Source: an uncultured virus (IMG/VR IMGVR_UViG_3300037132_000149) (lineage: Duplodnaviria; Heunggongvirae; Uroviricota; Caudoviricetes). From it: 64,000 nt of DNA. Positions 19,767-40,927 of the stretch are shown piece after piece. The stretch lies in IMG/VR virus record IMGVR_UViG_3300037132_000149, positions 1 to 64,000 of that record, one strand, 5' to 3'. How positions within the stretch are numbered: position 1 is the first letter of the stretch; every line of letters starts with the position of its first letter. The notes below the pieces were generated by a model that was not told where the DNA came from, ran no database searches, and was given only the letters and a program-made list of their open reading frames with translations. The translations under genes and the position numbers were made by a program.

Positions 19767-21470
19767 TTAGGCCCTTGGAATCTTGAGGCCGCCAATCCGG
19801 GGGCCCGTCAGGGGCAACCCCGCAGCAACCGCCTTTTCCTTCTGCGCAATCCGGTGGGCTTCCTGCAGCGCCCAGCGCGCGATCGAGGTCTCATCGACGC
19901 CCGAGGCGCGCATCTCCTTCACCCTCTCCAGCATCTTGAGCCGCTCGGGCTTCACTGCCTCCACCAGCCAGGTGTTATAGGCATAGGCCACCATGTCGTA
20001 GAGGTCGTCGTCGGCGTCGCCGTGGATCTTCTTCACCGCCTTGCGCTCGTCGATCACCCGGGTCGCGACCGAGTTAAAGGTGCGCGGCATGGCCGTGGTC
20101 AGGACGATCTCCCTGCCGGCCAGGCCGGTGTAGAGTTTCTGGGCGTTGTCGGCAGGGTTCTTGTGGCTCTTGATCAGCGAAACCCCGTGCTTCGCAAACA
20201 CGCCGGCGATGATGTCGAAGTTGGTCTCGCCGGTGCCGTCCTCGTTGTCATTGGCGGGGTCGATCGTGGCAAACAGGATTTTGCGCCGCTCGTCGCCCAT
20301 GCGCGGCTTGATCCAGAACTCGCAGATTTTTTCCGCGAACTCTTTGGAGATCATCTTCTGCTCGCTCAGTTCACCGATCCCGAAGACGCGGCCGTTGTCG
20401 TCGACCGCAAACAACCCCGCCGCGGCGTGCGAGTTCCCGTAGCCGTAGTCGATCGAGATGAAGTGATTCCACCACCACTCGACGCCCACCTGCTGGAAGG
20501 GCATCGACCACTCCGGCCGCAGGAACCCGAAGTAGAGGCTCTCGGCGTTGCACCAGCAGCCATGGAGCAACTGCATCTGGATCTCCGGGGTCTGCGAGAG
20601 CAGGGAGTCGATCTTGTCCTGGCCATAGAGGGGGTTGTCGGTCACCGAGGCCGGAAAGAACGCGACGGTCTTGTGCGTCAACTCAGACGGCGATGGCGGC
20701 CAACTCCAGCTTGTGCCGGAGTAGACGCGGCCTGGCCACACCGAGGAGTGCAGCGGGTCCGCGTCGAGCCTGGTGCCGGGGTAGTGGAGCGGGCAGCGGT
20801 TGCGCAGGAAGACGCTCATCTGCCAGCCGTGCCCGACGCCGCCGGGGTTGGTCGCAAAGCGCGCCCGCACGCGCAACCGGCGGTCGACCGCGGCGAGCCA
20901 GGCGATCATCTGCCTAACCCGAGCCTTGGGGTGCAGACCGCTCTCGTCGATGCCCAGCCAGGAGTATGGGTTACCGCGGTACTTCTTGAGGTCGGCGTCA
21001 CTTGAGAGGTAGCCGAACCGGATACGGGCGCCGCTGCTGCCCAGAATCTTCACCCAGCGGCCGCGCTTGAATTCATACTCGGGAAAGATCCACTGGCCGC
21101 CGCCGGTTCTCAGCCGGTACTTGGCGCCCAGCGGTTCATAGGCCGCCTTCATCCGGTCGCCGATCTGGTCAAACTCGCCCAGTGACTCGCGCAAAAGCAG
21201 ACCCCTGAAACTCGGGATCATGTACTCCTGCATCGCGTCGCCAACCAGAAAATCGCTCTTGCCCCCGCCCGACTGGCCGCCGTAGAGAAGCATCTCCGCC
21301 GGCGAGCAGAGCGCGGCCTGCTGGGCGCCGTTGATCGGCCACCAGACCGGGTCGAGTTCGGCCGTCGGCGGTATCCAGGCAGGGAAATCGTTGGGGATTG
21401 AGAGCTCGCCGGGCGCGAGCGGCGGAGGCAGTTGGAACAGGGCCGGCGGTGTAAAGGATTGCGTGCTCAT
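19767..21470 (-). CDS. terL: Terminase large subunit
   Basis: Q motif, Walker A YGGQSGGGKS, Walker B LGIDE, ATNPGG, nuclease SIDYG and DDLYD. Confidence 0.92.
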   Translation of the reverse strand: MSTQSFTPPALFQLPPPLAPGELSIPNDFPAWIPPTAELDPVWWPINGAQQAALCSPAEMLLYGGQSGGGKSDFLVGDAMQEYMIPSFRGLLLRESLGEFDQIGDRMKAAYEPLGAKYRLRTGGGQWIFPEYEFKRGRWVKILGSSGARIRFGYLSSDADLKKYRGNPYSWLGIDESGLHPKARVRQMIAWLAAVDRRLRVRARFATNPGGVGHGWQMSVFLRNRCPLHYPGTRLDADPLHSSVWPGRVYSGTSWSWPPSPSELTHKTVAFFPASVTDNPLYGQDKIDSLLSQTPEIQMQLLHGCWCNAESLYFGFLRPEWSMPFQQVGVEWWWNHFISIDYGYGNSHAAAGLFAVDDNGRVFGIGELSEQKMISKEFAEKICEFWIKPRMGDERRKILFATIDPANDNEDGTGETNFDIIAGVFAKHGVSLIKSHKNPADNAQKLYTGLAGREIVLTTAMPRTFNSVATRVIDERKAVKKIHGDADDDLYDMVAYAYNTWLVEAVKPERLKMLERVKEMRASGVDETSIARWALQEAHRIAQKEKAVAAGLPLTGPRIGGLKIPRA

Positions 21471-22105: not shown

Positions 22106-25100
22106 TTAGTAGTCGATCGGCACGCCGTGCTGGCGCAGCGTGTTCTCAAGCTCAGTAGCCGCCGGCACGTTCAAGCTGGCCAGCGTCTGGATCTTCCGGT
22201 CGGCCTTGGCTTCCATGATGTCAGAGAGTTCCGCGCGCTCGCTCGCGTCGGCTGCGTTCCACACCTTGACCGCGTCGTCGAAGTTGCTCATGTGCTTCAC
22301 GTCGTACTGCAGGTCACTCATCGAGCCGCGCTCCTGGACCCTGGCAGCGTCCTGCGGCGAGATCTTGCCCGTCGACACCAGGTTCCAGAGGTCAGTCTGC
22401 GAGATCTGGCCGTCCCTGAATTTCTGGCTGAGTTGCACATTGCGCCGGCTTTCGGCCTGCCGCTCCTCGCTCTCCGGCTCGTCGGGTATCCCCCTAACGT
22501 AGAGGTCATGCGCCTTCTTCTCGAGGGGCGTGTGGTAGTTCGCCATGTTCGCGCCGAGCGAGGTGAAGAAGCTCTCGATCAGGCTCTGGTCGTTTGTGGT
22601 GAAGAGTTTCTGGACGGGGATCGGCGTGGTCTGGGTCGCGTAGCTCTTAGCAAAATGCGTCTTTGTTTCCTGCCGGCCAAAGTTGTCGCGGCCGGTGATG
22701 AACTCGATCGTCGGCCGTATCGTGACCGGGTTGAGCCGGTTATAGGTCCACTCAGCCGGGCTCGCCACCAGGTGGGCGATGTCCGAGTAAACGGTGCGGA
22801 CCGAGATCGCCTTGTTGCCCCAGGCCGGGCCCCAGCTCTTTGGCGTGACGACGGTAAAGGCATCCTGCGGATCCCAATGCGCTCCGCGGCGCCAGCCCTG
22901 CTCGTGATTAAGGGCAGCGTTGATGATGCGGCATGCGGCATACATCAGCGCCGCGCCGCGCAACAGGGCCAGCCGCTGCTCCGAGCCAAACTTCGAGAAA
23001 CCCTGCGCCACAAACTGCGCCCGGGCCTTGGTGAAGTCGGGCGAGAACAAGAGCAGGTGTTCGGCAGCCTTGAAGGTCCGGTTATTCATCACCTCAAGGT
23101 GCCGGAAGAACGCCGGATCCTGGCCGGAAAACGCAGCGTTGGTCTGGGCCGCGCTCATCAGGCCGATCTCGTCGCGGGTGAGCTTGGCCTGGGCGCCGGG
23201 CCTTCCGCCGCCGTAGCGCTCAAGGTTGCGCTCGTAGATGATCTTGTACGACTTGGCTTTGAGCCGCGGGATCCAGTCGCGGAAGAGGTACCTGTGATAG
23301 GCGCCCATCCCCGGCAGGCCGCTCAACACGCCCTCGGGGTCGATCTCGACCATCTTGAGGCCGTGGCCGACGCCGTCCTGGACGGTCTTATCCTTGGTCA
23401 GGTCCTCGAGCGAGTCCAGCCGGAACGGGTTGATGAAGTGATCGAGCGCGTGCATGCCGAGCTGCACCTGGTGGAACCCTGAGCCGTAGAGGATCACGCC
23501 CTTCACGGTCGACCCGGCCTTGCCGACCGCCCGCGCCGTGCCCTTGATGATCTTCACGGGCAGGTGGTCTGAGGGTGACTCGAACCAACTGCGGGTGACG
23601 AGATCCGAGACCCGGCCGGCATACTTCGGGTGGATGACGATGTCGCCCTTCATGGCCAATTGCTTGCCCTCGGGCACCGGGAACCTGGGATCTTCGGGGG
23701 TAAACAGTTTCGCCTGCTCCGCCGGGTCCATCTTGGCATAGCCGGGTGCGAGCACCTCGCGGTCCTGGTCGTCGAGTTCCCAGGTAAAGTTGCGCAACTG
23801 GCTGGCCGGGATGCGCACGTAGTCGTCAACGTTCTCGGGCCGCTTTGGCTGCTTCATGATCCGGGTCTCGCCGGCCGTGTTCTTGTCGACGATGGCCCAG
23901 CCTGAGCGGCTCTCAAGCGCAGCCAGAGGCCGGCCATCCTCGGGGTCCACCCCATACAAAAGCGATCGCACAAAGCCGCGGGTCATAAAGGTTTTGGTGA
24001 ACGCATCGTGATACGACGATAAGATCCGGCCGGCGTCCATGGTCTTCGGGTCTTCGCCGCCCATGATCGCGTCGAAGAAACTCGGCCAAACCCGGCGCTT
24101 GAGAAAACTGGGGTTCGACATTAACTCAGAGAAGTCCGTCACCGCGCGCAACTTGGCCAGCGTCTCAGGATCAGTGGCAAAGGTGTGCATGGCGTAGTGT
24201 GACGCGCCCGCCGGCAGCAGGCCAGCGTCGGTCAGGATCTTCAACTGCTGCTGGTAGTAGCGGGTGTGCGCGTCGGCCACCTGCTGCTGTTCCGGGGTTA
24301 GATTGAGCGCATCTTTGAAGGCCTGGGCGTTGCGCTTGCCGCCGGGTTTTGACTCGAAGGCTACCGAGCCCGCGCCGGCTGCCCAGCGCTTGAGTGTTTG
24401 CGGGTCGCCACCGGCTTCGCCGTAGGCGGTCATCGCGTTGCGCTCGCGCTCGCTCGGCGCCACGCGCTTCAATTCCTTCTGGTAGCGATCGACGTCCATC
24501 GCGGCGCGCAGCTCGGCCTTGCGCAGGTCGCCCAGATTCTGGAAGTAGTCGGTCCACGGCGCCGGCTGTCCCCAACTGTCCCAGGCACCTGCTGCCGCGC
24601 CCTTGACGCCACCCCAGGCCTTTTCGATCGCGGTGCCGGTCTTGGCCACGGCGGCGACGCCGGCGTCGCTCGCGGCCTCTACACGCTCGCCCATGCCCAT
24701 CTTGCGGGCCGGCATCCCCTTGAGGTCAGCGATCGCGTCCTCAAGGCTCTTGCCGGTATCATGGCCGCCGGTCGTAACCGTGGTGGGGGTCGCCCGTGGC
24801 GCCTTGAGCCCGGCAAGTCGGTCGTGAAACTCCTCCTCGCTCTCGTCGCCGCGTTTGGCGGTGAGGTCTTCCGACACTGGCGTGCGCTTGAAGAGCGGCT
24901 GGCCCTCGGTCATCACGCTCTCGCGCATGGCGTCGGTGACCGGCAGGTAGGGCACGGTCACAGCGCCCAGTTCGCGGTTCAGCCGGTCGGCTTCGGCCTG
25001 GGCGGCGTCGCGGTCGTAATAGTGCATGTCCTTGGCGGGCGTCAAACCCTCCGACGAGATCACGCTGAAATCCGGCTGGCCGTCGCGCGGCGGTCCTTGC

Positions 25101-28100
25101 GTCACGCGCCATTTGTTATCGGGCAGGCTCGTCTCGACGACCTTGGCGCCGAACGGCTTGCCGATTTTGTTGGCGGTCTGGGGCACGATCTTGTCGTAGA
25201 AATTCTTCATCCCCTCGCCGCCGACCTTGAGGTCGAGGCCAGAGAAGGTTTGGCGGCCTACGGTCCCGGCCGCGGGCGCTCCCGCCACGATCTTTGCCGC
25301 CAGGTCCTTGCCCACGTGGTCTGCCAGTTTCTCCTCGGACACATCCAGTTCGACCTCGCGCCAGCGCCCGTCGGGCATGCGCGCTGTCAGATCGTACTTG
25401 CCATTGCCAAAGCCGATCGCGTCCAAACTCTCGATTTGTCTGCTCAGGTCGTATCGTGCCGCCTGCTGCTCACCCGGCGTCCAACTGATGCCGTCGTAGC
25501 CGTTCTCGGCGGCGTAGCGGATCATCCGCTTCATCAGCAGCTCCGGCCAGGTCTTCTTGAAAGGCGCGTTCGGCACGCCGCGATTCCCGTTTTCATTCAG
25601 CCTACGCTGCGCCTCGTCGTACTCGCGGGTGATCGCCGCGAGCCTTGGGTCATCTCTCTCCGCGCCGCGGAAATCAGAGCGAACGATGTTTGTCTGCTCG
25701 ATTGCGTCTTTTGCGCTAGAGGCAGCAACCGTGTACACGATCCGGCCGTTGACCGAAACCTCCCAATCTCCCGGCGCTCCTGCCGCCGGCTCCGCGCTGA
25801 ATTTAGCGAATCCGCGCAATTGCTTCCAGAGGTCGTTGCGCCGTAGCTCAAGCGCCCTTACTTCCTCGGCCGGAAGAGAGCGCAGATACCCTTCCGTGCG
25901 CCCTCTCTGGTGCCAGTCGCTCTGCAACTCCTCTAGGTGCAGCAGCTTTTCGCCGTTCGGGCCGGTGCGGTCGTTGAAGCGCACATGGCCGATGACGTTC
26001 GGCTCTTCCCAGTGCGGCGTGCGGAAATCGACGGCGTGGGTGTCGCTCCGGCTCTTCGTGTCGGCGACGTACTGCATCGCCCGGCCAGCACTGCTCATGC
26101 CGTAATTCTGCTTGGAGATCATGAACTGTTGGCCCGGCGCGTCGATCGCCCAATGTGTCGGCGTCGTGTCCTTCTCGTTGAGCTTCAGCTCAGAGAGATC
26201 GTAGCGCGAACTGCCTTGCGACGGCAGTGTGAGCAGTAGTTCGCGGTAGTTCTCGCCCCCGGGCAGCGTGTAGCCCTCAAATTTTACGGGGCCGGCGAGG
26301 CGCGGTTCCAGCGCCTTAACCTCGCGCTGGTGCGGTGTTCCGCCTTTCTCGACCTCCTGTATTCCTATATCGTTCGCGGCCAGCGTCTCGCGCAGTTCCT
26401 GCGGCTTGACCGGCGCGGTCCCCTTGGCGCGCAGCAGGTCGCCCAGGCCAGTCCACTCGAGCTCTTCCGGCTTCACGCCGTTGTTTTCCAGCATGCGCAG
26501 GGCGGCGTTGGCCGGCATCGGGCCCTGCATCTTCTGGCCGATCAGCCGCTCGCTCTTGAGGTAGAACGTCGGCGCTTTTTCCAGTCCCTGTTCCCTGTTC
26601 CCTGTTCCCTGTCTTTTGAAGAGCGACCCCTGCGGGCTGGCGTCCGACCCTCTAAACAGCGGCGCGTTGCGCTCCATCTCGCCGGCCTTCTTGTCGATGT
26701 CGGCGAGCGGCGTCCGCAGTTGCTCCTCCATCGCCTGCTTCTCGGCCGCGGTCCTGGCCTCCTCAGCCTCCTTGACCGCGTCCTCCATGCCCGGGAAGGC
26801 GATCGGCTCGCCCTGGAGCGGAACAAAGCCCGGTGGCCGGCGGCGCTGGAAGAGGCCGCCCTGGCCGGCAGCCTCTAGTTCTGCTCGCGTCGGCGCTGTT
26901 CCCTCAGCGCCTGGTTGAAGGCCTGCACCACCGGGCTCTCGGCTCCCCGCCGTATCAGGCGCGAGCCCTTGCCGAGGGGTTGCTTCGCGTACTGCTTCCC
27001 GGTTCGGTTGAGCCACTCCTCGGCCTTCTGCCCCTGCTCCTGCTCGAGCTGTTTGCTGTCCATACTCCCTCGCTCTCTTGATTACTTCGGCCAGTTTCGG
27101 GTCGGCGGCCGGCATCCCGTCGAGGACCGCCGGGCCCTTCTCGTCGATCGCGGCTTCGAGCGCCGCCTGCGCCAGGTCCTGCTGCTCGGTTCCCTTCCAG
27201 TCAATATCGGGGTCGCCCGCGAGCGCCTTCCCGACGATTTCCGCGGCGACCTGTGGGCCGTCGGCTTCCTTGTAGAGTTCCCTCAGTTTTGCCAGAACTC
27301 GCTCAAAGACCGGCATCGCGGCAAGCTCTTCCATGGTATCCGACCCGTAAAGCCCCGACCGGATATACCAGCGATGCCAGAGCTCCTCGCGCAACGTCGC
27401 TGGGTCGTAGTCGCCGCGAATCAGCAGCAGCGAACCGTCGGCGTCGCGGCCCTGGTCGAGTGCGAGCGCCAGCGCCTTGAGCGACTCTGCGGCCTGCCGC
27501 ATGCCGGGCCGTACCCGCACGTTCGACTCAAACGATCGCACCCTGGCCACCATGCGCGAGGCCTCGGCGGCCACGAGATAAACCCCCTCGAAACGGTCCT
27601 CCGGAAAAGCGATCTTCCGGATGGCTTCGTAAGCCGGCGCGTTCATCACATGCACCGGCGCCCCGTCGACTTCCATGCGGTCGACTTTAGCCCTGGCGGC
27701 ATTGTCCCAGGTCAGCCGGTTCTCGGCCGCAGAGAGCTCGCGCTGGTACCGTCCCCTGGCTATAAGTCGATTCTGCGTCTCTTCCGCGGTTTCGCCGGGG
27801 AGGCGACCGGCAGGTCGAGCGCCAGCGGGTACATCTCCAGAAGCTCCTCCGGCGTTGCGTCCCTGGTCGGGAACCAGATCTCCGGCTTCTGTCCGGGCCG
27901 GTACCGCACCTCGGGCGGCAGTATCACCTGCGGCTTGCCGAGTGGCTTCACTCGCTCGAGCGGCTGGCGTAGCAGCCGGCGGCGCCTCCTGAATCCGTGC
28001 CCCAGTTTCGGCATCTTCTCCCCCTACAATCTGGCCCGTGTTTGGCTCGACCTGCGTCGCGCGGTCGTCGTACAGTTTCACCATCTTCGGGTCTTTGATG

Positions 28101-31100
28101 TTCGTGATCGGCAGCACCTGGCCCAGGTGTTGCTGGCTCCAGGCCTCGATCGACGCCCGGGCGACTCCGGTTGGGTCGTCGGCCACGCGCGCCGTAAAGA
28201 ACCTGACATCTTTGACCTGTTTGGCGTCAATCCGCTCGCCATTGGCGAGGATGTTCCTGATCCGGTCGACCATCTCCGGAATCGGTTTCCCGATGAACTC
28301 TTTGCCTTTGAACTCGGTGTAGTGGGCGAGCGTCTTGTCGAGATCGACCCCGATCCACTCGGCCGCCGGATCCACTTTTGGCGGCTGCACCCGCTCAAGG
28401 TCGGTCGGCTTCACAGCCTCGCGGAGCTTGCCGTCAGAGAGCCGGACCCTGGCACGCACCAGCCCGGTTGAGGCCGGCGTCACGTATTGCACCACGCCGG
28501 CGGTGCCGTCCCTCAATCGGACGACGTCGCCCTTGGCTATCTCTCCGGGGCCTCGCTCTGCGGCGGCACTACCGGCTCCTGCTGCGCCGGCGCCTCGCCC
28601 TCCTTGGGTTGCATCAGCCCGAACCGGCTGGCGGCCTGCCGGTACAGCTCGAGGCCCCTCAGCACCCGCTGCTTCGCCGCGCTTGTAAGCCTGGGCCAGT
28701 GCGGTCCTTGCGGCGCTATAGGCTCTGCGTTTGATCTCACTCGCGTTCCCCTTTCCCTCGGCCAGTTCCTTGGCGGCCGCGTTAAGGATGTCGTCGACCG
28801 GCCCGGTGCGCGTACTCAGCCGGTCATAAATTTCCTGGTCCTGCGCCGCGGTCTCAGCGGTCTTCGCGTTGTCGGCCGCGTTGATCTTGTTCTGGCCCTT
28901 TTCAAGCGTTGCCGCGCGGCCCTTGTCGGCGACCGTGGCAAAGAGCCTGCGCTCCCTGCCAATCTCGTCGCGGATATAGGCCGAGATCTCCGCCTTCTCG
29001 AGCGCCAGGTTGCGCCGCATCTCGACCGCTCCGAAGAGCGTCTGCTGCGTCTCGGCGTGTTCGCCGGCACCCGACGCCATCCTGGCTAACTCGGCTACCG
29101 TATCGTCACTTACGCGACGGCCCCGCATCTCCTGGCGCTCGATCAGCTTGAGAATTGCTTCCTGCTGCTCTGGGACCGCCGTGGCGTTGCCGATCTCGAC
29201 GGCGCGGCCGATGCGCAACTGCCCGCTGACGACCTTGTCGAAGAGTGAACTGTGGAGCCGCGACAGCGCCAGGCCGTTCGCGGCCGTGGCTTCACCCAAG
29301 GATATGCCCTTTTCTTTCAGATCCGCAAGCCCAATTCCGGTATCGCGGAAGAACTTCGCTGCGTCAACCGCGGTTCCGCGGCCCTCGGCGATGTTCTGGA
29401 GCGCGGCCGTGGCCCGGGCTTCCTCGGCCGTTGCGGCCGGCAGGTGCAGCGCGTTCAGCCTGGGCACCTTGTTGTCCTTGGCGAGCTGCGCCCGGTGGTG
29501 GCCGTTGACGACGTAGAGTTTACCGTTTGCCGGATCTCGCCAGACGGAGATCACGCCGGCCAGGTCCGGGTTCCATTTCTGGCCTTTGAGCAGGTTGGTC
29601 GTCCCCGAGGCGTCGGTATTGAGTTTGTACTGGAAGCGCTTCGGATCGAAGGCTATCTCGGAAGTCTTGATTGACCCTACTTCGCCCGGGCCGGGTTCGC
29701 GTCCTCGGGCGCCACCTTGATCGACCGCACCTCGCTGGGGTCCAGTTTCAGCAATTCCTCGAAACTCGCCGCGTTCCCGCTCGCCGGCGGCGGTGCGGCT
29801 GGCTTTGTGTTCCTTGAGGGCACGCTCGGCGATGCCGGTGTCTGTTCCTGTGCCATAGCTGAAATCCACTCCTTTGTAGAGTTTGCTGGCCCCGTCCTTG
29901 GTTGTCACCTCGATGGCCCGGCCGCCCAGAATCTGGCGCGCCTTCTCGAGCGCGGCCTTGAGTTGGGCTTCGCTCTGGCCGCGGTAGAGAAACTCGTCGC
30001 CCTTGTCGTGATAGGCCTCGAGACCGGCTGCTCTCAGCGCGTCGGCTTTCGCGCGCAGCAGCTCGTCGCCGGCGGCGTAGCCAAAACGGTCATTGAAGGC
30101 CTTGAGGCCGTCCGCATCCGACATCGCGACCGAGGCGGCCGGCTGCTCGCGCTGCTTCTCTTCAAAGGCCCGGCGGTTGGGCAGGCCAGTCTTCTCGCTG
30201 GTCAGCAGTTCGCGCCGCATCTCCTCGGGCGCCATCTCGGCCACACGCTGCCGGCGGCCAGCGTCGACGCGCCGGTCTGGCGCGCCCTTGAGCGGGATCT
30301 CGGTTTCATTCCCCTTACTGTCGGTAACCGTGATCGAGTTGACCTTGAACGGCTTGCCTGCTGTGACCTGGTTGCCCACATACTTCTGAGCAGCCTCGGG
30401 CTTCACGTAGGCGATGGTCGCGTGGGGTTTGTAGTCGGCGAAGTTTGACCGCGCAAAGTCGCCATGCTGCTCGATCTCGCGGTTGAGGCGGGCGAGCTCG
30501 GTGCTCTCGACCGGCGCATGCAGGGGCACGGCGCCATCAGAGTGAACTGAAGGCGGGAAGGCTGCGACGGGCCCCAGCGTCGCATCGAATGGGCTCTGCG
30601 ACTCGATGTAGGAGCGCAGCTCCGGGGTCAGGTCATGTTGCAGGCCGTAACGCACCGTAACATGGTTGCCGCCCACATCCTTGCCCTGGCCGGCAAGGTC
30701 GGCGTCGGGAATCGCGGCGCGGGCCTGCTCGATCGCCTGGGCGGCTTCGGATCCAGCCGGGATGTTCGAGTGCGTGGTGCCGAACTCGTGCTCGGTCGCC
30801 GTCTCCTGCTGGCGCGCCTGAAAGTCCTGCCAGTGTTGGTCGTTCCGCTGGCGCAGCTCGGCTGCGGCATCCTTGTCGCCGTCGCGCGCCTTCTCGTAGA
30901 GGCTGTGGTCTTTATTGGCGGCGTCGGCCACTTCGCGCGGCAGAATCTGCACCTCGTGCGACACATCGGACCCGGGCGCGCGCACGTTGAGCGTGTAGGA
31001 GTGGAACCCATGATCCTCGTCGCCCTGGGCGAAGTTGTCCTGCTCGGCGTGCACCTCGAAGCGCTGGCGAAGCGCCGCGATCGTAGCCGGAACGTCAGCC

Positions 31101-33157
31101 GGGGAGTCGACGGCGATGCGGAACCCGGAATAGTCGCGTGCCGTGGCCGGCGACTGGCCTTCGTCCTCGATCTTTTCCTCGAGCCGGTCGGCATCCTTCT
31201 CGGGTCTGGCTCCTGCTAACTTAGCCCCCGGTACATCACTTAGCACCGTTTTGATGGTCGCCTTTACTTCGGGATGCTCCTCGGTTGCGCGCGCCTGAAT
31301 CGCTTCGGGATTGTTGCCCTCCTGGAGCACGGGCCGCTCGGTCTCTGGCTCGACCGCGCCAATTGGTTTGACTGGTTCGCCGGCAGTGCCCGCAGGCGCT
31401 GCCGGGTTATTCGGCACCGATGTTCCCCGTGGAACATTCTCGCCGCCGCCGGCGGTGAGCTCTGCCGGCGCTGTCGGGGTCGGTGCGACCGCAGGGCCAC
31501 CTGGACGGCCGTAGGTGGCCTCAGCGGCGCCAACCCTGACCTTGGCCGTAGGCGTGCCCGGGACGACGACGCTGCCCTCCTCGGGGCTGTAGCTGCCCGT
31601 GGGGCCCGGCTCCCGGTAGGCTGGCCTGTAGCCGACCTGGCCCTCTATGGGTCCGGCACCAGCGCGCAGGCCGTGCTCCCCGTAGGCTCCTTCATACGTG
31701 CGCACGCCAGCCAGGTGCGCGCCCGTCAGTAAGGCAAACAGAGCATCAGCAGGGGCCGCCGTCCAGGCCTGGGTGGCTGTGATCACATCGCCCTTTTTAT
31801 AGGCGTCGTAACCCAGGTTGAACTGCTGCACTGCTTCCTTGGCCATGCCGGCGGCAAAACCCATACCGCCAAGGATCCTCACTGCCCGCGGCACCGACGA
31901 TGATCCAAGCGCATACATCAGGGCAAGATTTTCCGGGGTTGTCAGCCCGTCCGCAACCTGTCTCGCGCCACCGCCCATGCCGCGCAGGACGTTCGCCACC
32001 GAGAGGCCGCGGTCTTGAATCTTTGCAATCTGATCAGGGTCGCCGGACTTGTAAGTGTCGATCGCTTCGCGCAGCGGATCAGTTGCGTTTTCCATGTTCT
32101 TCTGGCGCTCTGCCTGGTCCGGAGGCATCCCCGCAGAGATCAGAAGCCGCTTGTACTCTTCTGGCGTTGTCCGCCCAAACATGGGTGATTTTTTGTCGAG
32201 CGCGTCGAGCATGTCCACGGCCCGCGTGAGCAGGGGTTTTCCGGTTATGGGATTAGCGGCTAGAGCGGCCGGAATCCCCGCGACGTTCGTCCCGATATTG
32301 CGCACCGTCGCTGTAGCCTGTTTGGCGTTGTCCTCCGCCCTGTCCATCTCCCTACCGAGCGTGCCGTCACCGCTTGGGTAGGGTAGTTCGCGGATCGCAT
32401 CCCAGGCGCGGCCAAAAAGTCCTTTCGTTGGCGCGGCCTCGAGCGCTCCCGGGTGGGCCACTGCGCGGGCCGGTTTGAGCGGCGTTGCGGTTGTCGCTTC
32501 GAATGGCTCTCTAGGAAGCGCCGCCTCCTGCTGAATCTGCTCCTGCATGTTGCGCGGCGGTGCGCTGGCTGGTGCCCGGGAAAAGCCCTCTGCCGCCGGC
32601 CCGGCAAGTTCCATCTTTTCAGGTATAAGGGGTTTCAGCGGCACGAGTTCAGTCGGCAGCGTCGCGCGGTTGATGTCGATCTGTTGTGCCTGCCGTTCGG
32701 CGGTGAAAGCCGGCAACCCAGCGGCTGGCGAGTTCGCCCCTTTCAATGGCGGCAACACCTTGTAGCCCTTGGGCACGTCCTCGTAGTCGGCGGCCTCCTG
32801 CGGGGTCTCCATCTCCGCGCCTGGCTGGCGTGTCAGGCGCAACCCTGGAGGCATGGCCGCCGGTGTCGGCGGCTTGTACTGGCCGCCAGGGAGAAACTGC
32901 GGCTCTAAGATGCTGGTCTGCCGCGGCGCCGGCGTGATCGAGTCGACTGTGGGCCTCTGGCCTTGGGGCTGTACGGGTTGCGCTGGCGCCTGAGGAGCTG
33001 CGGCAGGCGGAGCCTGGGCCGGCGCCGCCGGTGGCAGCACCTTGTAGCCGTCGGGCACGTCGGAATACTGCTGCGGCTGGGTGTCCGATCCAGCCGGCGG
33101 CAGCACCTTGTAGCCGTCGGGCACGTCCGAATACTGCTGTTGGTCCTGGTCGTCCAT
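22106..33157 (-). CDS. Giant (3683 aa) polyvalent internal-virion/ejection protein with RelA/SpoT-like, 2H, GGDEF, ParB-like, HAD and zincin-like domains
   Basis: TAATG coupling at 33157; domain motifs listed in findings; last of three ejection-type genes. Confidence 0.85.
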   Translation of the reverse strand: MDDQDQQQYSDVPDGYKVLPPAGSDTQPQQYSDVPDGYKVLPPAAPAQAPPAAAPQAPAQPVQPQGQRPTVDSITPAPRQTSILEPQFLPGGQYKPPTPAAMPPGLRLTRQPGAEMETPQEAADYEDVPKGYKVLPPLKGANSPAAGLPAFTAERQAQQIDINRATLPTELVPLKPLIPEKMELAGPAAEGFSRAPASAPPRNMQEQIQQEAALPREPFEATTATPLKPARAVAHPGALEAAPTKGLFGRAWDAIRELPYPSGDGTLGREMDRAEDNAKQATATVRNIGTNVAGIPAALAANPITGKPLLTRAVDMLDALDKKSPMFGRTTPEEYKRLLISAGMPPDQAERQKNMENATDPLREAIDTYKSGDPDQIAKIQDRGLSVANVLRGMGGGARQVADGLTTPENLALMYALGSSSVPRAVRILGGMGFAAGMAKEAVQQFNLGYDAYKKGDVITATQAWTAAPADALFALLTGAHLAGVRTYEGAYGEHGLRAGAGPIEGQVGYRPAYREPGPTGSYSPEEGSVVVPGTPTAKVRVGAAEATYGRPGGPAVAPTPTAPAELTAGGGENVPRGTSVPNNPAAPAGTAGEPVKPIGAVEPETERPVLQEGNNPEAIQARATEEHPEVKATIKTVLSDVPGAKLAGARPEKDADRLEEKIEDEGQSPATARDYSGFRIAVDSPADVPATIAALRQRFEVHAEQDNFAQGDEDHGFHSYTLNVRAPGSDVSHEVQILPREVADAANKDHSLYEKARDGDKDAAAELRQRNDQHWQDFQARQQETATEHEFGTTHSNIPAGSEAAQAIEQARAAIPDADLAGQGKDVGGNHVTVRYGLQHDLTPELRSYIESQSPFDATLGPVAAFPPSVHSDGAVPLHAPVESTELARLNREIEQHGDFARSNFADYKPHATIAYVKPEAAQKYVGNQVTAGKPFKVNSITVTDSKGNETEIPLKGAPDRRVDAGRRQRVAEMAPEEMRRELLTSEKTGLPNRRAFEEKQREQPAASVAMSDADGLKAFNDRFGYAAGDELLRAKADALRAAGLEAYHDKGDEFLYRGQSEAQLKAALEKARQILGGRAIEVTTKDGASKLYKGVDFSYGTGTDTGIAERALKEHKASRTAAGERERGEFRGIAETGPQRGAVDQGGARGREPGPGEVGSIKTSEIAFDPKRFQYKLNTDASGTTNLLKGQKWNPDLAGVISVWRDPANGKLYVVNGHHRAQLAKDNKVPRLNALHLPAATAEEARATAALQNIAEGRGTAVDAAKFFRDTGIGLADLKEKGISLGEATAANGLALSRLHSSLFDKVVSGQLRIGRAVEIGNATAVPEQQEAILKLIERQEMRGRRVSDDTVAELARMASGAGEHAETQQTLFGAVEMRRNLALEKAEISAYIRDEIGRERRLFATVADKGRAATLEKGQNKINAADNAKTAETAAQDQEIYDRLSTRTGPVDDILNAAAKELAEGKGNASEIKRRAYSAARTALAQAYKRGEAAGAEGPRAVPAGRQPVRADATQGGRGAGAAGAGSAAAERGPGEIAKGDVVRLRDGTAGVVQYVTPASTGLVRARVRLSDGKLREAVKPTDLERVQPPKVDPAAEWIGVDLDKTLAHYTEFKGKEFIGKPIPEMVDRIRNILANGERIDAKQVKDVRFFTARVADDPTGVARASIEAWSQQHLGQVLPITNIKDPKMVKLYDDRATQVEPNTGQIVGGEDAETGARIQEAPPAATPAARASEATRQAAGDTAARGAVPARTEAGDLVPDQGRNAGGASGDVPAGARPAGRLPGETAEETQNRLIARGRYQRELSAAENRLTWDNAARAKVDRMEVDGAPVHVMNAPAYEAIRKIAFPEDRFEGVYLVAAEASRMVARVRSFESNVRVRPGMRQAAESLKALALALDQGRDADGSLLLIRGDYDPATLREELWHRWYIRSGLYGSDTMEELAAMPVFERVLAKLRELYKEADGPQVAAEIVGKALAGDPDIDWKGTEQQDLAQAALEAAIDEKGPAVLDGMPAADPKLAEVIKRAREYGQQTARAGAGAEGRGVAQPNREAVREATPRQGLAPDTAGSREPGGAGLQPGAEGTAPTRAELEAAGQGGLFQRRRPPGFVPLQGEPIAFPGMEDAVKEAEEARTAAEKQAMEEQLRTPLADIDKKAGEMERNAPLFRGSDASPQGSLFKRQGTGNREQGLEKAPTFYLKSERLIGQKMQGPMPANAALRMLENNGVKPEELEWTGLGDLLRAKGTAPVKPQELRETLAANDIGIQEVEKGGTPHQREVKALEPRLAGPVKFEGYTLPGGENYRELLLTLPSQGSSRYDLSELKLNEKDTTPTHWAIDAPGQQFMISKQNYGMSSAGRAMQYVADTKSRSDTHAVDFRTPHWEEPNVIGHVRFNDRTGPNGEKLLHLEELQSDWHQRGRTEGYLRSLPAEEVRALELRRNDLWKQLRGFAKFSAEPAAGAPGDWEVSVNGRIVYTVAASSAKDAIEQTNIVRSDFRGAERDDPRLAAITREYDEAQRRLNENGNRGVPNAPFKKTWPELLMKRMIRYAAENGYDGISWTPGEQQAARYDLSRQIESLDAIGFGNGKYDLTARMPDGRWREVELDVSEEKLADHVGKDLAAKIVAGAPAAGTVGRQTFSGLDLKVGGEGMKNFYDKIVPQTANKIGKPFGAKVVETSLPDNKWRVTQGPPRDGQPDFSVISSEGLTPAKDMHYYDRDAAQAEADRLNRELGAVTVPYLPVTDAMRESVMTEGQPLFKRTPVSEDLTAKRGDESEEEFHDRLAGLKAPRATPTTVTTGGHDTGKSLEDAIADLKGMPARKMGMGERVEAASDAGVAAVAKTGTAIEKAWGGVKGAAAGAWDSWGQPAPWTDYFQNLGDLRKAELRAAMDVDRYQKELKRVAPSERERNAMTAYGEAGGDPQTLKRWAAGAGSVAFESKPGGKRNAQAFKDALNLTPEQQQVADAHTRYYQQQLKILTDAGLLPAGASHYAMHTFATDPETLAKLRAVTDFSELMSNPSFLKRRVWPSFFDAIMGGEDPKTMDAGRILSSYHDAFTKTFMTRGFVRSLLYGVDPEDGRPLAALESRSGWAIVDKNTAGETRIMKQPKRPENVDDYVRIPASQLRNFTWELDDQDREVLAPGYAKMDPAEQAKLFTPEDPRFPVPEGKQLAMKGDIVIHPKYAGRVSDLVTRSWFESPSDHLPVKIIKGTARAVGKAGSTVKGVILYGSGFHQVQLGMHALDHFINPFRLDSLEDLTKDKTVQDGVGHGLKMVEIDPEGVLSGLPGMGAYHRYLFRDWIPRLKAKSYKIIYERNLERYGGGRPGAQAKLTRDEIGLMSAAQTNAAFSGQDPAFFRHLEVMNNRTFKAAEHLLLFSPDFTKARAQFVAQGFSKFGSEQRLALLRGAALMYAACRIINAALNHEQGWRRGAHWDPQDAFTVVTPKSWGPAWGNKAISVRTVYSDIAHLVASPAEWTYNRLNPVTIRPTIEFITGRDNFGRQETKTHFAKSYATQTTPIPVQKLFTTNDQSLIESFFTSLGANMANYHTPLEKKAHDLYVRGIPDEPESEERQAESRRNVQLSQKFRDGQISQTDLWNLVSTGKISPQDAARVQERGSMSDLQYDVKHMSNFDDAVKVWNAADASERAELSDIMEAKADRKIQTLASLNVPAATELENTLRQHGVPIDY
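26585..26612. repeat. 4 x 7-bp tandem repeat (TCCCTGT)
   Basis: Read directly; encodes the linker QGTGNREQG. Confidence 0.9.
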
Positions 33158-34782
33158 TATTGCCCGGGTCGCGACTCGGCGACCCATTTACCGCCTCGCT
33201 TTACTTCAATGTGACCGTCGGGTGCCTGCCGGCGCAGCCCCTCGGGGGCGGGCTGCCGCGGTGCCTTGCGGCTCGTCGCGGCGGCCGCGGCCGGCGACTG
33301 CACCAGTTGGCCCTGCGGGTCGATCATCCAGCCGTCCTTCGCTAGCTTCGCGTTCGCGTCCTGGCGCAACTTTGTGACCTTGGCGTCGTACTCGGTGCCG
33401 GTGATTGAATCGAACTTTCCCGGCACCGTGGTGCGATAGTTGCCGTTTGGCTGTCGCTTCCAGGTGCTGGTGAACTCCGTGATCTTGCTCATGCCGTCGT
33501 CGGCCGCAGCCTTGACAGTATCCGGCGGCGTTGCGCTTGGCGGCTCCTTCTCCCGGCCGCCGGCCACCTGGTTGATCTGGTTGAGGTCGTCGAGCGTCGG
33601 TTGCTTGCCGCGGTTGGCCGGGTCGCGCTCCCATGCCCGCAGGGCCTGCGCCCGGGCCGTCTCCTCGGCGGTGGCCTGCCGTGGGTCGAAAAGCCGGCCG
33701 TTGGCGCGGTAGAAAGCGGCGTACTGGCCCTTGAGGCCGAGCCTGGTCGCTTCAGCATCCCACTGTTTGTACTTGGCTGCCCACTCGGCATTGGTCTCGG
33801 CCGTCTTGACGGCTGCCTTTGCCTCGGGGGTGTTCTGGTCGGCCGTGGCTTGGGTCTTCACCAGGTCCGCCGCCGTGGTGCCGACGTGTGCATAGTCGGG
33901 CGCAACGGTCTGGAGATCCTTGCCCTTGTCCCGAATTGCCGAGGTCGCCGCGTTGAAGCGCGCGATGATGTCGGCCTTGCGCTGCTGGTCCTGGGCGAGT
34001 GTTCCCTGCCGCAGTTGCTCGTCCTCGGTGTAGTCCTTGTTTGGCGAGCCGTAGGGCGTCGCCTGATCGGGGTGGCCGCCAAAGCCCTCGGCGAAGTTCT
34101 TGAACACGCGGCCGACTGTGCCCCCGAAACTATCCTTGTAAAGCGGTTTGCCAGTCACCGGATCTGTCGCCCTGGGATTGGTGGGGATTGAATCGGTCTC
34201 GATTTTCGTGTCGATCGCCGTGGTGTCGGGCGCTGCGGGTTCGGCCTGGAAGGCTTGCCGATTCTGGTCGGCGATCGAGAGCTCGCCCTCGAGACCCTTT
34301 TGGGCGTAGCCTGCCCAAGGTGCCGCGCCAGCCGGTGCGGGCGCCGCGGGGTTCGATGGGTTCGGATTGGGTGCGGCCGGGTCGGGCGCCGTGGCTGCTG
34401 GTCCCAGCGTCTCTGGCGGCGGGGCGGCCGGCTGGCCGGGCTGGGGCCTCGTGTGGAGTACGGGCCTGGCCGGCGAGCCTGGAGGATCCTGAAAGCGTGG
34501 ATCCGGATCGGCAGCCGCTGGCTGCGGAGCAGCAGCCGGAGCGGCCGGTTCGGGGGTCGGCGGAGGGGTTGCCTGCGCAATCTGCACGGCCTGCGCGCTG
34601 GCGTTCCTTTCATCGCTGGCGGCCTTATACGGGCCCGAGAGTTGGCTCAATGCGGCGGAGGCCTTGCCCGGGTTTGCGCGTAGTTCGTCTGGGTCGTATC
34701 CGGCCGCCGCGAGCGGCGCAGAACTCCGGCTCATTGAGGCCAGGTCGCTGCCGTCTGCCCAGTCTGTCCAGTCGTCAGCCAT
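33157..34782 (-). CDS. Putative internal virion/DNA-ejection protein
   Basis: Pro/Ala/Gln-rich, TGATG-coupled, lies between tail genes and the giant protein. Confidence 0.6.
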   Translation of the reverse strand: MADDWTDWADGSDLASMSRSSAPLAAAGYDPDELRANPGKASAALSQLSGPYKAASDERNASAQAVQIAQATPPPTPEPAAPAAAPQPAAADPDPRFQDPPGSPARPVLHTRPQPGQPAAPPPETLGPAATAPDPAAPNPNPSNPAAPAPAGAAPWAGYAQKGLEGELSIADQNRQAFQAEPAAPDTTAIDTKIETDSIPTNPRATDPVTGKPLYKDSFGGTVGRVFKNFAEGFGGHPDQATPYGSPNKDYTEDEQLRQGTLAQDQQRKADIIARFNAATSAIRDKGKDLQTVAPDYAHVGTTAADLVKTQATADQNTPEAKAAVKTAETNAEWAAKYKQWDAEATRLGLKGQYAAFYRANGRLFDPRQATAEETARAQALRAWERDPANRGKQPTLDDLNQINQVAGGREKEPPSATPPDTVKAAADDGMSKITEFTSTWKRQPNGNYRTTVPGKFDSITGTEYDAKVTKLRQDANAKLAKDGWMIDPQGQLVQSPAAAAATSRKAPRQPAPEGLRRQAPDGHIEVKRGGKWVAESRPGQ

Positions 34783-35834
34783 CAGCGTGCCCCTTTCGAG
34801 TCGGCGAGAACTCTTGCGATGAACCGGCCGCCGGCTGTTTTTATGACCGCCTTTTGTCCTGCGTGCCACTCGAGGAGGCACTTTAAAACGTGGTTAGAAA
34901 TGTCGCGCTCGGTGAAGCCTTCGGCAAACGGCTTACCCCGCACCACCTTCTCGAGGTTCCAGTACGATCGCCAGAGGTTTGAGCCCTCGGCGCCGATCAG
35001 CCACAGCGAAGCGCTGCCCAGGCCGGCCTCAAAGACATGCCGCAGCACCCACGAAACTGCCCTCGACCGCGGCATCCACTGGTCCGCAATCCGCTCCCCC
35101 CAGCGCGCGTAGGCGGCCGCGACGACCCGGCCGTGCCAGGTCCTGCTGAATTTGAAGGCCAGCCAGAGCCGGAAGAGCACCGTGCGCCGGCTGCCCCACC
35201 CATCCCAGAGCCGCGCCGCAATCCAGCATCCACCGACTGCGGTCGCGATGCCTCCTGCGGCTGATTTTCCGAGGCCTTGGGCGAGAGCTCCGAAGCCCGA
35301 AACGGCCGCGTTGCCGAGTTCATCCAGGAAGCTAGGTTCCTCTGCCGCCTTTTGGCCGGTTTCGAGCGAGGTGTTGCCGGCGCCGGCCTGCTGGCCGCTT
35401 AATGTCGTCTCCAGGCTTGCCGGCACCTCGCTCGCCTGGAGCGTGCCTTTGTTGTAGGCGGCTTCGTTTGAGATCCGCTCGGCGTTCTGCTGCGCCTGTT
35501 GGCCCGAGAGCGTGCGCTCGTTGGACTGCTCATCGGCCTGGGTCGCAGCGATCGCCGGCGCTGCGTTCTGTCCCGTGCGCACGGCTGCCCCCTGCATGGC
35601 CTGGCCGGCCGCCGCGGCAGCCGCGTCCGAAGTATTGGCGAGCACCTTGTTCTGCGAGGTCTCGAACTCTCCGCCGGCTTTGTAGGGGTTGGCCGAGGCA
35701 TATTGGGAGAGCTGGTTTTCGTAGTCCTGCACACCCGTCTGAGCGCCGGTGTAGCTCTGCTGGGCGTTCTGGTTGAACGTCTGGTTCTGCTGCTCGGCGG
35801 TCGACAAAACCTGCGCTTCCTGGCCTCTACTCAT
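34782..35834 (-). CDS. Putative DNA-transfer (pilot) protein with C-terminal GGCWIA module
   Basis: Gln/Ala/Gly-rich N-terminal region typical of podophage ejection proteins. Confidence 0.6.
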   Translation of the reverse strand: MSRGQEAQVLSTAEQQNQTFNQNAQQSYTGAQTGVQDYENQLSQYASANPYKAGGEFETSQNKVLANTSDAAAAAAGQAMQGAAVRTGQNAAPAIAATQADEQSNERTLSGQQAQQNAERISNEAAYNKGTLQASEVPASLETTLSGQQAGAGNTSLETGQKAAEEPSFLDELGNAAVSGFGALAQGLGKSAAGGIATAVGGCWIAARLWDGWGSRRTVLFRLWLAFKFSRTWHGRVVAAAYARWGERIADQWMPRSRAVSWVLRHVFEAGLGSASLWLIGAEGSNLWRSYWNLEKVVRGKPFAEGFTERDISNHVLKCLLEWHAGQKAVIKTAGGRFIARVLADSKGAR

Positions 35835-35846
35835 AGTCGGTTCCTT

Positions 35847-36308
35847 TCAAAGCCCGCGAAAAAAATGGGCCAAGCGATGGTCAATCTGTTTCATGCCCTG
35901 CTCGCCGAGCACTTCAATCAACTCCGGCGTCGCGCGCTGGCGCGGCACAAAAGCGTGCGCGTCGTCGTAACCCCGTTCTTTGAGAAGCTGGAGCGCCATG
36001 GGGATGTGACCCATCGAAAACTCCATCTCCTCGCGACCGCCGCCGAAGCTCATCACCTCGATGGTGCGCAGGAAAACATGGCCGCAGCGCACTCGCCAGG
36101 GCCGGTCTCCCGTCCTTGCTTCGGTCACCAGCGCCAGCGCCACGTTCGGAAGCCTGCGGCCCAGGTCTGGGTGGCCGTCCCTCATTTCAAACACCGGCGG
36201 AAAAGGGTAACTCGTTCCGTCCCTCCGGTTCTGCGCCGCCGCCGCTCGCCATAGCGCCGGCAGATCTTTGGGCTCCATCATCCGGACTCGATACTCACAT
36301 ACGGGCAT
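35847..36308 (-). CDS. Hypothetical protein, possibly GNAT-like morphogenesis protein
   Basis: VRMMEPKDLPAL N-terminus; position before ejection genes. Confidence 0.5.
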   Translation of the reverse strand: MPVCEYRVRMMEPKDLPALWRAAAAQNRRDGTSYPFPPVFEMRDGHPDLGRRLPNVALALVTEARTGDRPWRVRCGHVFLRTIEVMSFGGGREEMEFSMGHIPMALQLLKERGYDDAHAFVPRQRATPELIEVLGEQGMKQIDHRLAHFFRGL

Positions 36309-36657
36309 GAGGCAAAGCCTTGAACTCCGGCACGTTGTGTTTTCTGGCGTAGGCCCGAAGCGCCGCGTGGTGATGGTTGAGGCGCTCGAGAAGGTGCCGC
36401 TCGAACTCCCGCGGGTCGAAGACGTTGCCGGCTGAGTCCCTGAGCGTTCCGTCCGGCTCGATCGAGAAATCTCCGCCCAGCTTGATCCTGACCGTGTTCG
36501 GCCCGACGTGGTACTCGAAGGCTCCGGTGCCCATCCAAAAGTGCAGCTCGAGGCGCGCCGGCTGGCCCGACTCCGTGTGCACGCCACGCTCGATCAGACC
36601 CACTTTGTGCATGCCGGCGTCGAGGTTCATGTGGTGATATTCGCGTTCCCAGCTCAT
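36295..36657 (-). CDS. Hypothetical protein
   Basis: ATGA-coupled 120-aa ORF. Confidence 0.6.
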   Translation of the reverse strand: MSWEREYHHMNLDAGMHKVGLIERGVHTESGQPARLELHFWMGTGAFEYHVGPNTVRIKLGGDFSIEPDGTLRDSAGNVFDPREFERHLLERLNHHHAALRAYARKHNVPEFKALPHARM

Positions 36658-37727
36658 ACGTTTGTCAACCTCCCGCCGTTGCCGGCCGCTGCCGTGCCGC
36701 CGCCCTGCGCGCCCGGGAACACGCCGCCCGAGACGACGACCGTCGTACCGCCCGGATAGAGCGTTCCAGGGTTGCCTGGTGCGACCGAGATCAGCACGCC
36801 GCCCACGATGGTCTGCGCCCCGAAGGTCGCGCCCGTTCCTGGGCCGAAGGTCGCGAGAGCCAGAACGTAATCGGCACTCGCGCCAGACCCGCCAAACGTC
36901 ACGTTGTAGCCGATGATCTGGCCGCCCGAGATGATCGGCACAATCACCGGCGGCACCGGCGTGCCGGTACCGACCACGCTCACCTTGCCGATCGGCGTGA
37001 TGCCGTCCTCGAGCAGCGAGCCCAGTGTCGGTCGCAAGACGTAGCCCTGGCGGCTGCGACCGACAAACTGCGTCGATCCTGGCGGCACACCGACGATTAC
37101 CGCCGCCGGCAGCACGCCCTGTGCCCCGCCCTTCAAGGTTGGCATCGAGGTCAGCGGCCCTGCGGCTCCCTGAATCTCGACGGCTACCGTCGCGCCGACC
37201 GCCACGCTGGTTACGACGCCCAGATTGGTCTGGTTGAAGGCCCCGCCGTCGGAGGTGGCCGCGCTCGACACCAGACCGGCCTCGATCGCCGACTGCGAAG
37301 CCAGTATGGCCTGGTTCCAGACCTGTTTATTGAAACTCGACTCGAGCCGGAAGAACAACGTGCGGCCGGGCAGGTTCAAGACAATGCTCGTCGCCGTCGT
37401 CGGCTCGAGCACCGTGACGCCGCTCGTAAATCCCTTCACCGTCGAATAGCTCACCCGATTCCAGAGCGTTGCCGGCTGCGTGAGTTTGGGCGGCGTGATG
37501 GTCACGGTAAACGTGCCGTTTGACCCCTCGACCGCGATCGATCCTTGCGGCGGCGGCGCCGCGTTCTGCTGGTCCGACCCCTGGGTCACGCCAACCGTGC
37601 CCGAGACCTTGGCGATCTGCGCGCTCCATCCCTGGAAGAGATTGCGCGCGTCCTCCTGGGTCGCCCGCGGCAGCTTGCCGACCAGCGATTCAATCAGCGC
37701 GAAGTCATTGGGGGGTATCGTGCTCAT
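36654..37727 (-). CDS. Putative tail/structural protein
   Basis: Gly/Val/Thr-rich beta protein following the nozzle-like gene. Confidence 0.6.
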   Translation of the reverse strand: MSTIPPNDFALIESLVGKLPRATQEDARNLFQGWSAQIAKVSGTVGVTQGSDQQNAAPPPQGSIAVEGSNGTFTVTITPPKLTQPATLWNRVSYSTVKGFTSGVTVLEPTTATSIVLNLPGRTLFFRLESSFNKQVWNQAILASQSAIEAGLVSSAATSDGGAFNQTNLGVVTSVAVGATVAVEIQGAAGPLTSMPTLKGGAQGVLPAAVIVGVPPGSTQFVGRSRQGYVLRPTLGSLLEDGITPIGKVSVVGTGTPVPPVIVPIISGGQIIGYNVTFGGSGASADYVLALATFGPGTGATFGAQTIVGGVLISVAPGNPGTLYPGGTTVVVSGGVFPGAQGGGTAAAGNGGRLTNV

Positions 37728-37729
37728 GG

Positions 37730-40900: not shown

Positions 40901-40927
40901 GGGCCGCTCCTCGCTTCCGTGAGCGAC

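Follow-up and report, generated by a model that had tools for sequence, protein, structure and literature searches.

A giant open reading frame and its domains

We analyzed a 64,000-nucleotide window (bases 1-64000) of the 65,401-base IMG/VR record IMGVR_UViG_3300037132_000149, an uncultured Caudoviricetes genome flanked by direct terminal repeats, with a completeness rating of 100%. The minus strand of this window carries a giant open reading frame (ORF; P0001, 22106..33187, stop included) encoding a polypeptide of 3693 amino acids (aa). The ORF is a real gene: its GC content at third codon positions (GC3) is 0.78, in line with genuine coding sequence in a genome of 65% GC, it has 124 relatives at E ≤ 1e-3, and a 97% identical copy lies on another viral contig. 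A preliminary description of the same DNA had proposed a giant injected protein with a tandem nucleotide-signaling toolkit, and every motif it quoted occurs where it had been placed, on the minus strand and within this single ORF: RDYSGFRI at residue 684 (window ~31138), EVQI at 745, HVTVRYG at 842, HATIAY at 922, KGDEF at 1062, VVNGHHR at 1226, VDLDKTL at 1614 and REELWH at 1933 (window ~27391). These motifs span residues ~643-1940, only about a third of the 3693-aa gene. Five of its six domain calls hold (RelA/SpoT, 2H, GGDEF, ParB-like and HAD), whereas the sixth, a zincin, does not. Profile support differs among them: the 2H and GGDEF domains score above their Pfam cut-offs, RelA/SpoT falls just below its own and passes in three relatives, the ParB-like module is seen by fold only, HAD is seen by motifs and homologues, and the zincin was recovered by no profile.

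The RelA/SpoT-like nucleotidyltransferase (residues ~650-790; 30818..31240, minus strand) is recognized from a 24.1-bit match to the Pfam model RelA_SpoT (PF04607; residues 664-764, E 4.6e-5) together with conserved residues. We take the motifs of this enzyme family to be basic ATP-binding residues, strands bearing a catalytic Asp and Glu, and an H..Y.K signature. All are present here, and R661, K664, R668, D685, E745, H761 and Y764 are each at least 90% conserved among 37 relatives. The orthologous domain, to which this region is 59-70% identical in the relatives scanned, exceeds the 27-bit cut-off in P0020 (38.0 bits), P0055 (28.8) and P0021 (27.6) and stays under it in P0013, P0011, P0004, P0026 and P0101. 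Two RelA/SpoT-like domains, one orthologous to that of the giant ORF and a second, more canonical copy, occur in P0007 (at residues 510-648 and 796-926), P0015 and P0020; the second copies are detectable from the domain of the giant ORF at 25-27% identity, and that of P0007 matches RelA in the PDB (E 0.0033).

C-terminal to it lies a 2H phosphoesterase (residues ~835-965; 30293..30685, minus strand) that matches PF13563 (2_5_RNA_ligase2) at residues 842-956 with E 4.6e-10 and 40.2 bits against a cut-off of 27. Both of its HxT motifs (H842-V-T844 and H922-A-T924) are conserved in 61 relatives. These two motifs and the 2H superfamily are shared with Acb1, the phosphodiesterase that counters the cyclic oligonucleotide-based antiphage signaling system (CBASS). 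Unlike Acb1, however, the giant ORF reaches only 11.8 bits with the Acb1 model (PF23474; cut-off 27 bits). That model attains its cut-off in one of 14 scanned relatives (P0013, 27.0 bits) and gives sub-threshold scores in four more, and the generic LigT-type model outscores it in the giant ORF and in all 14.

The GGDEF domain (residues ~990-1132; 29792..30220, minus strand) bears a KGDEF signature and matches PF00990 at residues 999-1055 (E 3.3e-8, 33.9 bits versus a cut-off of 23.8). Searched alone, it retrieved 24 PDB sequences of diguanylate cyclases at E ≤ 1e-3, the best being WspR (E 5e-8), to whose core the segments TGLPNRRAF and SDADGLKAFNDRFGYAAGD align; a PDB search with the whole protein gave 33 sequences, all of them aligning to this region. 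The DxD site and GDEF are conserved in 39 relatives. Because KGDEF is the signature in 34 of 40 family sequences (SGDEF in two, and HGDEF, TGDEF, GGDEF and GGDEL in one each), it is a maintained variant of the family and not a product of decay. Against a viral contig (L001) that is 97.1% identical over the gene, identity drops to ~60% over gene nucleotides 3151-3450 (window 29738-30037, minus strand), which encode aa 1051-1150 in the C-terminal half of GGDEF, and this patch of ~300 nucleotides was evidently replaced by recombination.

The ParB-like module (residues ~1165-1500; 28688..29695, minus strand) is defined by its predicted fold, in which a ParB/Srx N-domain (~1170-1259) and a ParB-type helix-turn-helix (HTH; ~1252-1375) are followed by a beta-hairpin and long helices. 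A structure model built from 24 sequences (predicted local distance difference test, pLDDT, 79.8) retrieved Noc, ParB, KorB and Spo0J with Foldseek (19 matches at E ≤ 1e-3, best E 2.1e-5 to Noc), and the matches listed are all ParB, Noc or KorB. In VIA comparisons the model aligned with Caulobacter ParB over 182 residues (Z 9.4, root-mean-square deviation 4.8), with Noc (Z 9.2), with KorB (Z 8.2) and with sulfiredoxin over 82 residues (Z 8.4). At the level of the predicted structure, a ParB/Srx N-domain fold and a ParB-type HTH are thus confirmed in residues ~1170-1375. This predicted N-domain and HTH are what the module has in common with the CTP-dependent clamps ParB, Noc and KorB; unlike them, it has a GH[HN]R box, no sequence-level match and no ParA partner, and forms part of a 3693-aa protein. 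Across the family, the nucleotide-pocket box has the sequence NGH[HN]R, with only the Arg invariant, at what we take to be the position of the GERR-type CTP-binding box of chromosomal ParB clamps; the GERR-type box itself is absent. There was no Pfam match to ParB_N or ddrB-ParB at E ≤ 1, and a profile of the module against the PDB gave nothing meaningful (CagS, E 0.042; MJ1533, E 0.77); Pfam HTH_ParB matches four of the 24 alignment members (best E 0.011). A two-copy complex prediction (score 0.29, mark 0.42) was uninformative either way. Weak matches to Ribosomal_L9_C were also seen in nine of the 24 alignment members (best E 9e-4).

A small HAD-type phosphatase (residues ~1605-1720; 28028..28375, minus strand) is recognized from four motifs and from homologues. 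We assume the HAD motifs to be DxDxT, T/S, K and DD, and they are found here as DLDKT (1614-1618), TAR (1665-1667), K1702 and DD (1707-1708), conserved in 21 relatives and seven phage homologues. The region of the giant ORF matched none of the Pfam families. A profile of eight HAD sequences matches PDB entry 1xpj (deposited as a "hypothetical protein") at E 3e-4, aligned through all motifs, and among the eight aligned homologues three match HAD_PNKP (best E 1.2e-4), two Hydrolase_3, two Hydrolase_6 and two Hydrolase. The domain also stands alone, with its motifs conserved, in homologues of ~100 aa from 18 phage records, among them those of phiRSL1, Rhizobium phages and BcepSauron (where it is annotated "HAD hydrolase?"). 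The same module also opens a 1489-aa "MutT/NUDIX hydrolase" protein of the Acidobacteria jumbo phage Tunturi_5 (L089; record positions 225802-230271), another multi-domain user of this cassette.

A family of shuffled modules

Relatives were sought among proteins of 2031-6463 aa with residues 640-1840 as query, and the best 120 of the 124 found were listed. Most are encoded on metagenomic contigs 60-70 kb long; a few bear the label of Acidobacteriota metagenome-assembled genomes. Modules were counted in these 120 by local BLAST at a coverage of at least 50%, a query choice that favors the modules within residues 640-1840: ParB-like in 94, 2H in 60, the linker-motif region (described below) in 54, GGDEF in 39, RelA/SpoT in 36, the domain around REExxH in 31, a middle module in 26, a C-terminal module in 24 and HAD in 20. 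The ParB-like module is in addition present in 80 of 80 viral loci. The presence and absence of domains across the relatives revealed extensive shuffling, with modules in more than 40 orders; RelA/SpoT, 2H and GGDEF co-occur in seven relatives and are joined by HAD in four, and the full architecture recurs only in P0002, which is 93% identical. In its place, relatives carry ART-PolyVal, Zeta_toxin, His_Phos_1, SNF2/methylase, PBECR1/5, LPD22, InPase, SLT or VanY.

Such proteins, in which one giant phage polypeptide holds many unrelated effectors, were defined as polyvalent proteins by Iyer, Burroughs, Anand, de Souza and Aravind (2017, J Bacteriol, PMC5512222), who name RelA/SpoT, GGDEF, 2H and ParB-superfamily domains as components of the phage type. 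The giant ORF belongs to this class: a single 3693-aa ORF of a complete phage holds at least five distinct domains, hallmark polyvalent Pfam domains occur in its relatives, and its catalytic motifs are conserved, which bears out both the giant polyvalent protein and the tandem nucleotide toolkit of the preliminary description. It is a phage-type polyvalent protein composed of a near-universal ParB-like module and swappable small enzymes. With the published class it shares the accumulation of effectors, the extreme shuffling and the derived Pfam families of its relatives, whereas it lacks the zincin metallopeptidase, in PMC5512222 the commonest hub of the class, and its ParB-like module has a ParB/Noc-type HTH and matches neither ddrB-ParB nor ParB_N. 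The functional idea of the preliminary description, in which the protein would degrade immune messengers, such as those of CBASS or type III CRISPR, and make or sequester alarmone and c-di-GMP, is not new, since 2H domains countering host nucleotide signaling, and RelA/SpoT and GGDEF domains as phage-made signals, were already put forward in that paper. Beside its main text, in which a whole-word search found no HAD phosphatase, gp16, "internal virion", "ejection" or "cysteine", the new elements here are the HAD module, the putative internal-virion-protein position and the avoidance of cysteine. The family is large and offers a natural domain-swap series for matching cassettes to the defenses they counter.

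Gene position, cysteine avoidance and a possible role at entry

The giant gene is third from the end of a long minus-strand block that runs from ~64000 down to the large terminase subunit gene (TerL; 19767..21470, minus strand; phrog_979 and phrog_2), which is the second gene downstream, after a 195-aa ORF. Upstream lies a conserved block, g1056-g357-g246-g350-g574 (33157..40900, minus strand), with no known-family match. The order g1056-g357-g246-g350-g574-giant-TerL is kept in related viral contigs, with TerL found in seven loci and g1056 in seven. The ParB-like module also matches (E 2e-40) a 2571-aa protein of the Prochlorococcus phage P-SCSP1a (Autographiviridae). There the genes for the capsid, gp11 and gp12 are followed by two small ORFs, by a 953-aa protein that has an SLT-like domain at its C-terminus, by the 2571-aa protein and by a T7-type tail fiber; this locus is an internal-virion-protein cluster. 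Precomputed Pfam annotations place SLT in four of the 120 relatives, at the N-terminal extreme in P0067 (residues 35-134) and P0099 (40-131), the latter also carrying VanY, and these putative cell-wall hydrolases would fit proteins that cross the cell wall. T7 gp16 itself begins with an SLT lytic transglycosylase. Like the gp16-type genes, which follow those for the tail tubular and small internal proteins, the giant gene is a large gene, presumably late, before the terminase, and some of its relatives begin with the same kind of domain; unlike theirs, its predicted product is about three times longer, has no SLT and is loaded with nucleotide enzymes. The upstream genes match no known family, and the analogy between the clusters comes from P-SCSP1a. 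Because only the ParB-like module resembles the proteins of this T7-like phage, the comparison with gp16 is one of position.

The giant protein is nearly devoid of cysteine. It has one in 3693 residues, versus 151 in the 12,286 residues of 29 other ORFs of the phage (1.23%). Across the 120 relatives, 37 of 339,410 residues are cysteine; the median per protein is zero, and 116 of the 120 have no more than two. We infer that this avoidance reflects selection for unfolded passage through a channel or through an oxidizing compartment. In a limited search of the ejection-protein literature we found no mention of cysteine, and a similarly limited full-text search found no joint mention of "polyvalent protein" and "internal virion protein". 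A near-total lack of cysteine over ~340,000 residues offers a simple signature to try as a flag for translocated phage proteins. The neighboring ORFs g574, g357, g437, g578 and g274 are also free of cysteine.

Gene order, the parallel with a T7-like phage, the hydrolase domains of relatives and cysteine content are circumstantial signs that the giant protein is probably carried in the virion and enters the host along with the DNA. The fuller reading that we favor, with moderate confidence, is of a packaged and ejected polyvalent protein whose ParB/HTH core sits on DNA while its enzyme cassettes act at entry. Expressed late, the protein would be incorporated into the capsid as an internal (ejection) protein, taking the place of gp16-type proteins in T7-like gene orders. 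It would then pass through the tail together with the DNA in an unfolded state, which would explain why cysteine is nearly absent, and its action would fall in the first minutes of infection. After entry, the ParB/HTH module would keep the protein bound to DNA. With ATP as donor, the RelA/SpoT-like domain would pyrophosphorylate a nucleotide, or the end of a tRNA, and so stall the host; the KGDEF domain would make a cyclic dinucleotide from GTP; and the 2H and HAD domains would hydrolyze cyclic-phosphate or phosphodiester and phosphomonoester ends, their targets being either immune cyclic oligonucleotides or RNA that host nucleases have cleaved. Provided that it enters with the DNA, such a protein would produce alarmone-like or cyclic nucleotides and cleave cyclic phosphates, rewriting the nucleotide signals of the host before any phage gene is expressed, at the stage when CBASS, Thoeris, type III CRISPR and anticodon nucleases are at work. 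Comparable in size is the phage N4 virion RNA polymerase, likewise a giant of ~3500 residues from a 65-70-kb phage with terminal repeats, whose ejection is documented in published abstracts and which Iyer et al. (PMC5512222) treat as a polyvalent protein. Homology to it was rejected: residues 1028-3693 have no N4-like match in the phage records searched, and Pfam and NCBIfam find no RNA polymerase family.

Several observations weigh against this reading. Neither Pfam nor PHROG recognizes a known packaging or head-morphogenesis domain (MuF, DarA, portal) in the giant protein, and the only PHROG "portal" match is the tail end of that profile, over the ParB-like module. The protein itself lacks SLT, and, the ParB-like module aside, none of the phage's proteins resembles those of P-SCSP1a. 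A tblastn search of residues 1028-3693 against 50,697 phage records gave matches in 39, among them no N4-like or characterized ejection protein. The structure model of the C-terminal module is poor (pLDDT 53; predicted template modeling score, pTM, 0.33), RelA_SpoT scores under its 27-bit cut-off, and Lys replaces the first Gly of GGDEF. The lack of a recognized packaging domain would suit a late cytoplasmic polyprotein that is never packaged and manipulates the host or rival elements in the producing or lysogenic cell, the adjacency to the terminase being incidental. We consider this unlikely given the conserved position among structural and packaging genes, the ParB-like module shared with an internal-protein-cluster gene of a T7-like phage and the peptidoglycan hydrolase domains of relatives; the extreme cysteine avoidance of the whole family is likewise hard to square with cytoplasmic enzymes. 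The KGDEF signature and the low RelA_SpoT score could also mean that the enzyme-like domains are inactive sponges sequestering nucleotides, a possibility raised in the preliminary description. That is very unlikely, because catalytic positions are kept across relatives of 26-75% identity (the HxT pair in 61 relatives, the RelA/SpoT D/E/H/Y in 37, DxD and GDEF in 39 and the four HAD motifs in 21); such conservation is typical of active sites, though binding sites could show the same.

What the enzymes act on is a separate matter, and the data appear to fit messenger cleavage by an Acb1-like 2H domain and RNA-end repair about equally. As a reading of the whole protein, RNA-end repair seems to us possible but rather doubtful: the 2H domain would open 2',3'-cyclic phosphates and a PNKP-like HAD would then remove the phosphate left on tRNA or mRNA that anticodon or abortive-infection nucleases of the host have cleaved, with kinase-type modules of relatives supplying 5' healing. 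The best Pfam family of the 2H domain is indeed of the 2'-5' RNA ligase/LigT type and not Acb1, and three of eight HAD homologues match HAD_PNKP, but that model does not match the giant ORF's own sequence. Zeta_toxin-type P-loop kinase domains occur in P0011, P0015, P0055 and P0101, whereas Pfam and NCBIfam find neither a ligase nor a kinase domain in the giant protein, and the Acb1 model does reach its cut-off in P0013 and scores below threshold in four more of the 14 relatives scanned, so that a role on cyclic oligonucleotides is conceivable. RNA end processing is among the roles of 2H domains given by Iyer et al. 2017 (PMC5512222). Returning to the packaged and ejected protein, a more elaborate version of that reading can be drawn, which we regard as speculative and, taken whole, improbable. 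In it, a near-cysteine-free family of podovirus ejection proteins would have a universal ParB/Noc-type, nucleotide-gated DNA-binding core that rides the genome end and anchors rapidly recombining second-messenger enzymes (pyrophosphokinase, KGDEF cyclase, 2H and HAD) where and when immunity first senses DNA, the protein being cut or docked at G-x-L-F-[KQ]-R or Q-x-x-L-F linkers.

Other regions of the protein and the surrounding genome

The linkers in question recur between modules. One of them (QGGLF..PGME..AGEMERNAPLF..QGSLF; residues ~2100-2195; 26603..26890, minus strand) is conserved in 51 relatives. Its QGGLF and QGSLF motifs fit what we take to be the Q-x-x-L-F shape of bacterial sliding-clamp-binding peptides. 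A related pattern, LF[KQRG][RG], occurs five times (aa 257, 2112, 2177, 2189 and 2765), always in inter-module linkers; none of 2000 shuffles reached five copies, a result that is only a lead given that the pattern was picked post hoc. Processing of the polypeptide at the LF-[KQ]-R linkers is conceivable. Where relatives encode the C-terminal module as a separate gene, that module begins just ahead of a G-x-L-F-[KQRG]-[RG] motif.

The first 640 residues of the giant ORF are rich in Pro, Gln and Ala and include a Pro/Gln-rich region (aa 19-147; 32747..33133, minus strand) in which Y[SE]DVP[DK]GYKVLPP occurs three times, at residues 19, 41 and 135. This triple arrangement is found in five of the 136 proteins compared, which are otherwise divergent, and it could be a docking or packaging signal. 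A small beta-rich segment before HAD (residues ~1550-1600; 28388..28540, minus strand) is conserved in eight of the 120 relatives, and that it is SH3-like is a guess from its sequence; a scan of viral contigs with this segment plus the HAD part as a single protein query found only the near-identical contig.

The supposed zincin motif REELWH falls in a REExxHxW domain (residues ~1810-2045; 27053..27760, minus strand) found in 32 relatives. The zincin reading is rejected: the first position of REExxH is R, L or Q in these relatives and never His, and HExxH or HExxxH occurs nowhere in the 3693 residues. ESM Atlas returned unnamed clusters only, with LPD23 in 18% of one cluster, a lead that was dropped in turn since PF18838 does not match the ORF.

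The middle module (residues ~2200-2790; 24818..26590, minus strand) shows strong conservation of the motifs EE.QSDWHQ, VP.APF and GYD..W. Polyvalent proteins use this unnamed module very often: homologues fall in 11,322 representative clusters when the threshold is E ≤ 1e-3 and in 4,905 when it is E ≤ 1e-30, and the proteins that contain it reach 7058 aa. None of 20 sampled homologues has a Pfam family over it, and elsewhere these proteins carry ART-PolyVal, InPase, PBECR1, PBECR5, LPD22, Zeta_toxin or GGDEF; ESM Atlas gave unnamed clusters here also (best score 0.80). The C-terminal module (residues 2860-3693; 22109..24610, minus strand) is mostly helical. Fifteen shorter proteins are homologous to it, among them P0122 (957 aa) and P0123 (925 aa) from contigs of ~63 kb. 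The top match in BFVD, to a protein named for a "large polyvalent protein associated domain", is a hint only (E 8.5e-5, template modeling score 0.26-0.27), and a profile of the full-length family (17 sequences) gave one irrelevant match against the PDB (E 0.51).

Internal promoter or terminator signals above chance were not found within the giant gene, and a PADLOC scan returned no families. Portal, capsid and tail genes were not identified by PHROG or Pfam among the 30 ORFs of the window that were tested, most of which lie in the long minus-strand block. Because 22 of these 30 have no PHROG match and 24 no Pfam match, the phage belongs to a poorly known lineage. The family-less ORFs (33157-51308 and 53265-63993, minus strand) include proteins of 1056, 1034, 853 and 619 aa. 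The phage is temperate, since it encodes a tyrosine integrase (4646-5818). A plus-strand block encodes DUF5131, a DNA methylase and a GroEL-like chaperonin (8305-10059), the last matching phrog_5725 (E 6e-108) and Cpn60_TCP1.

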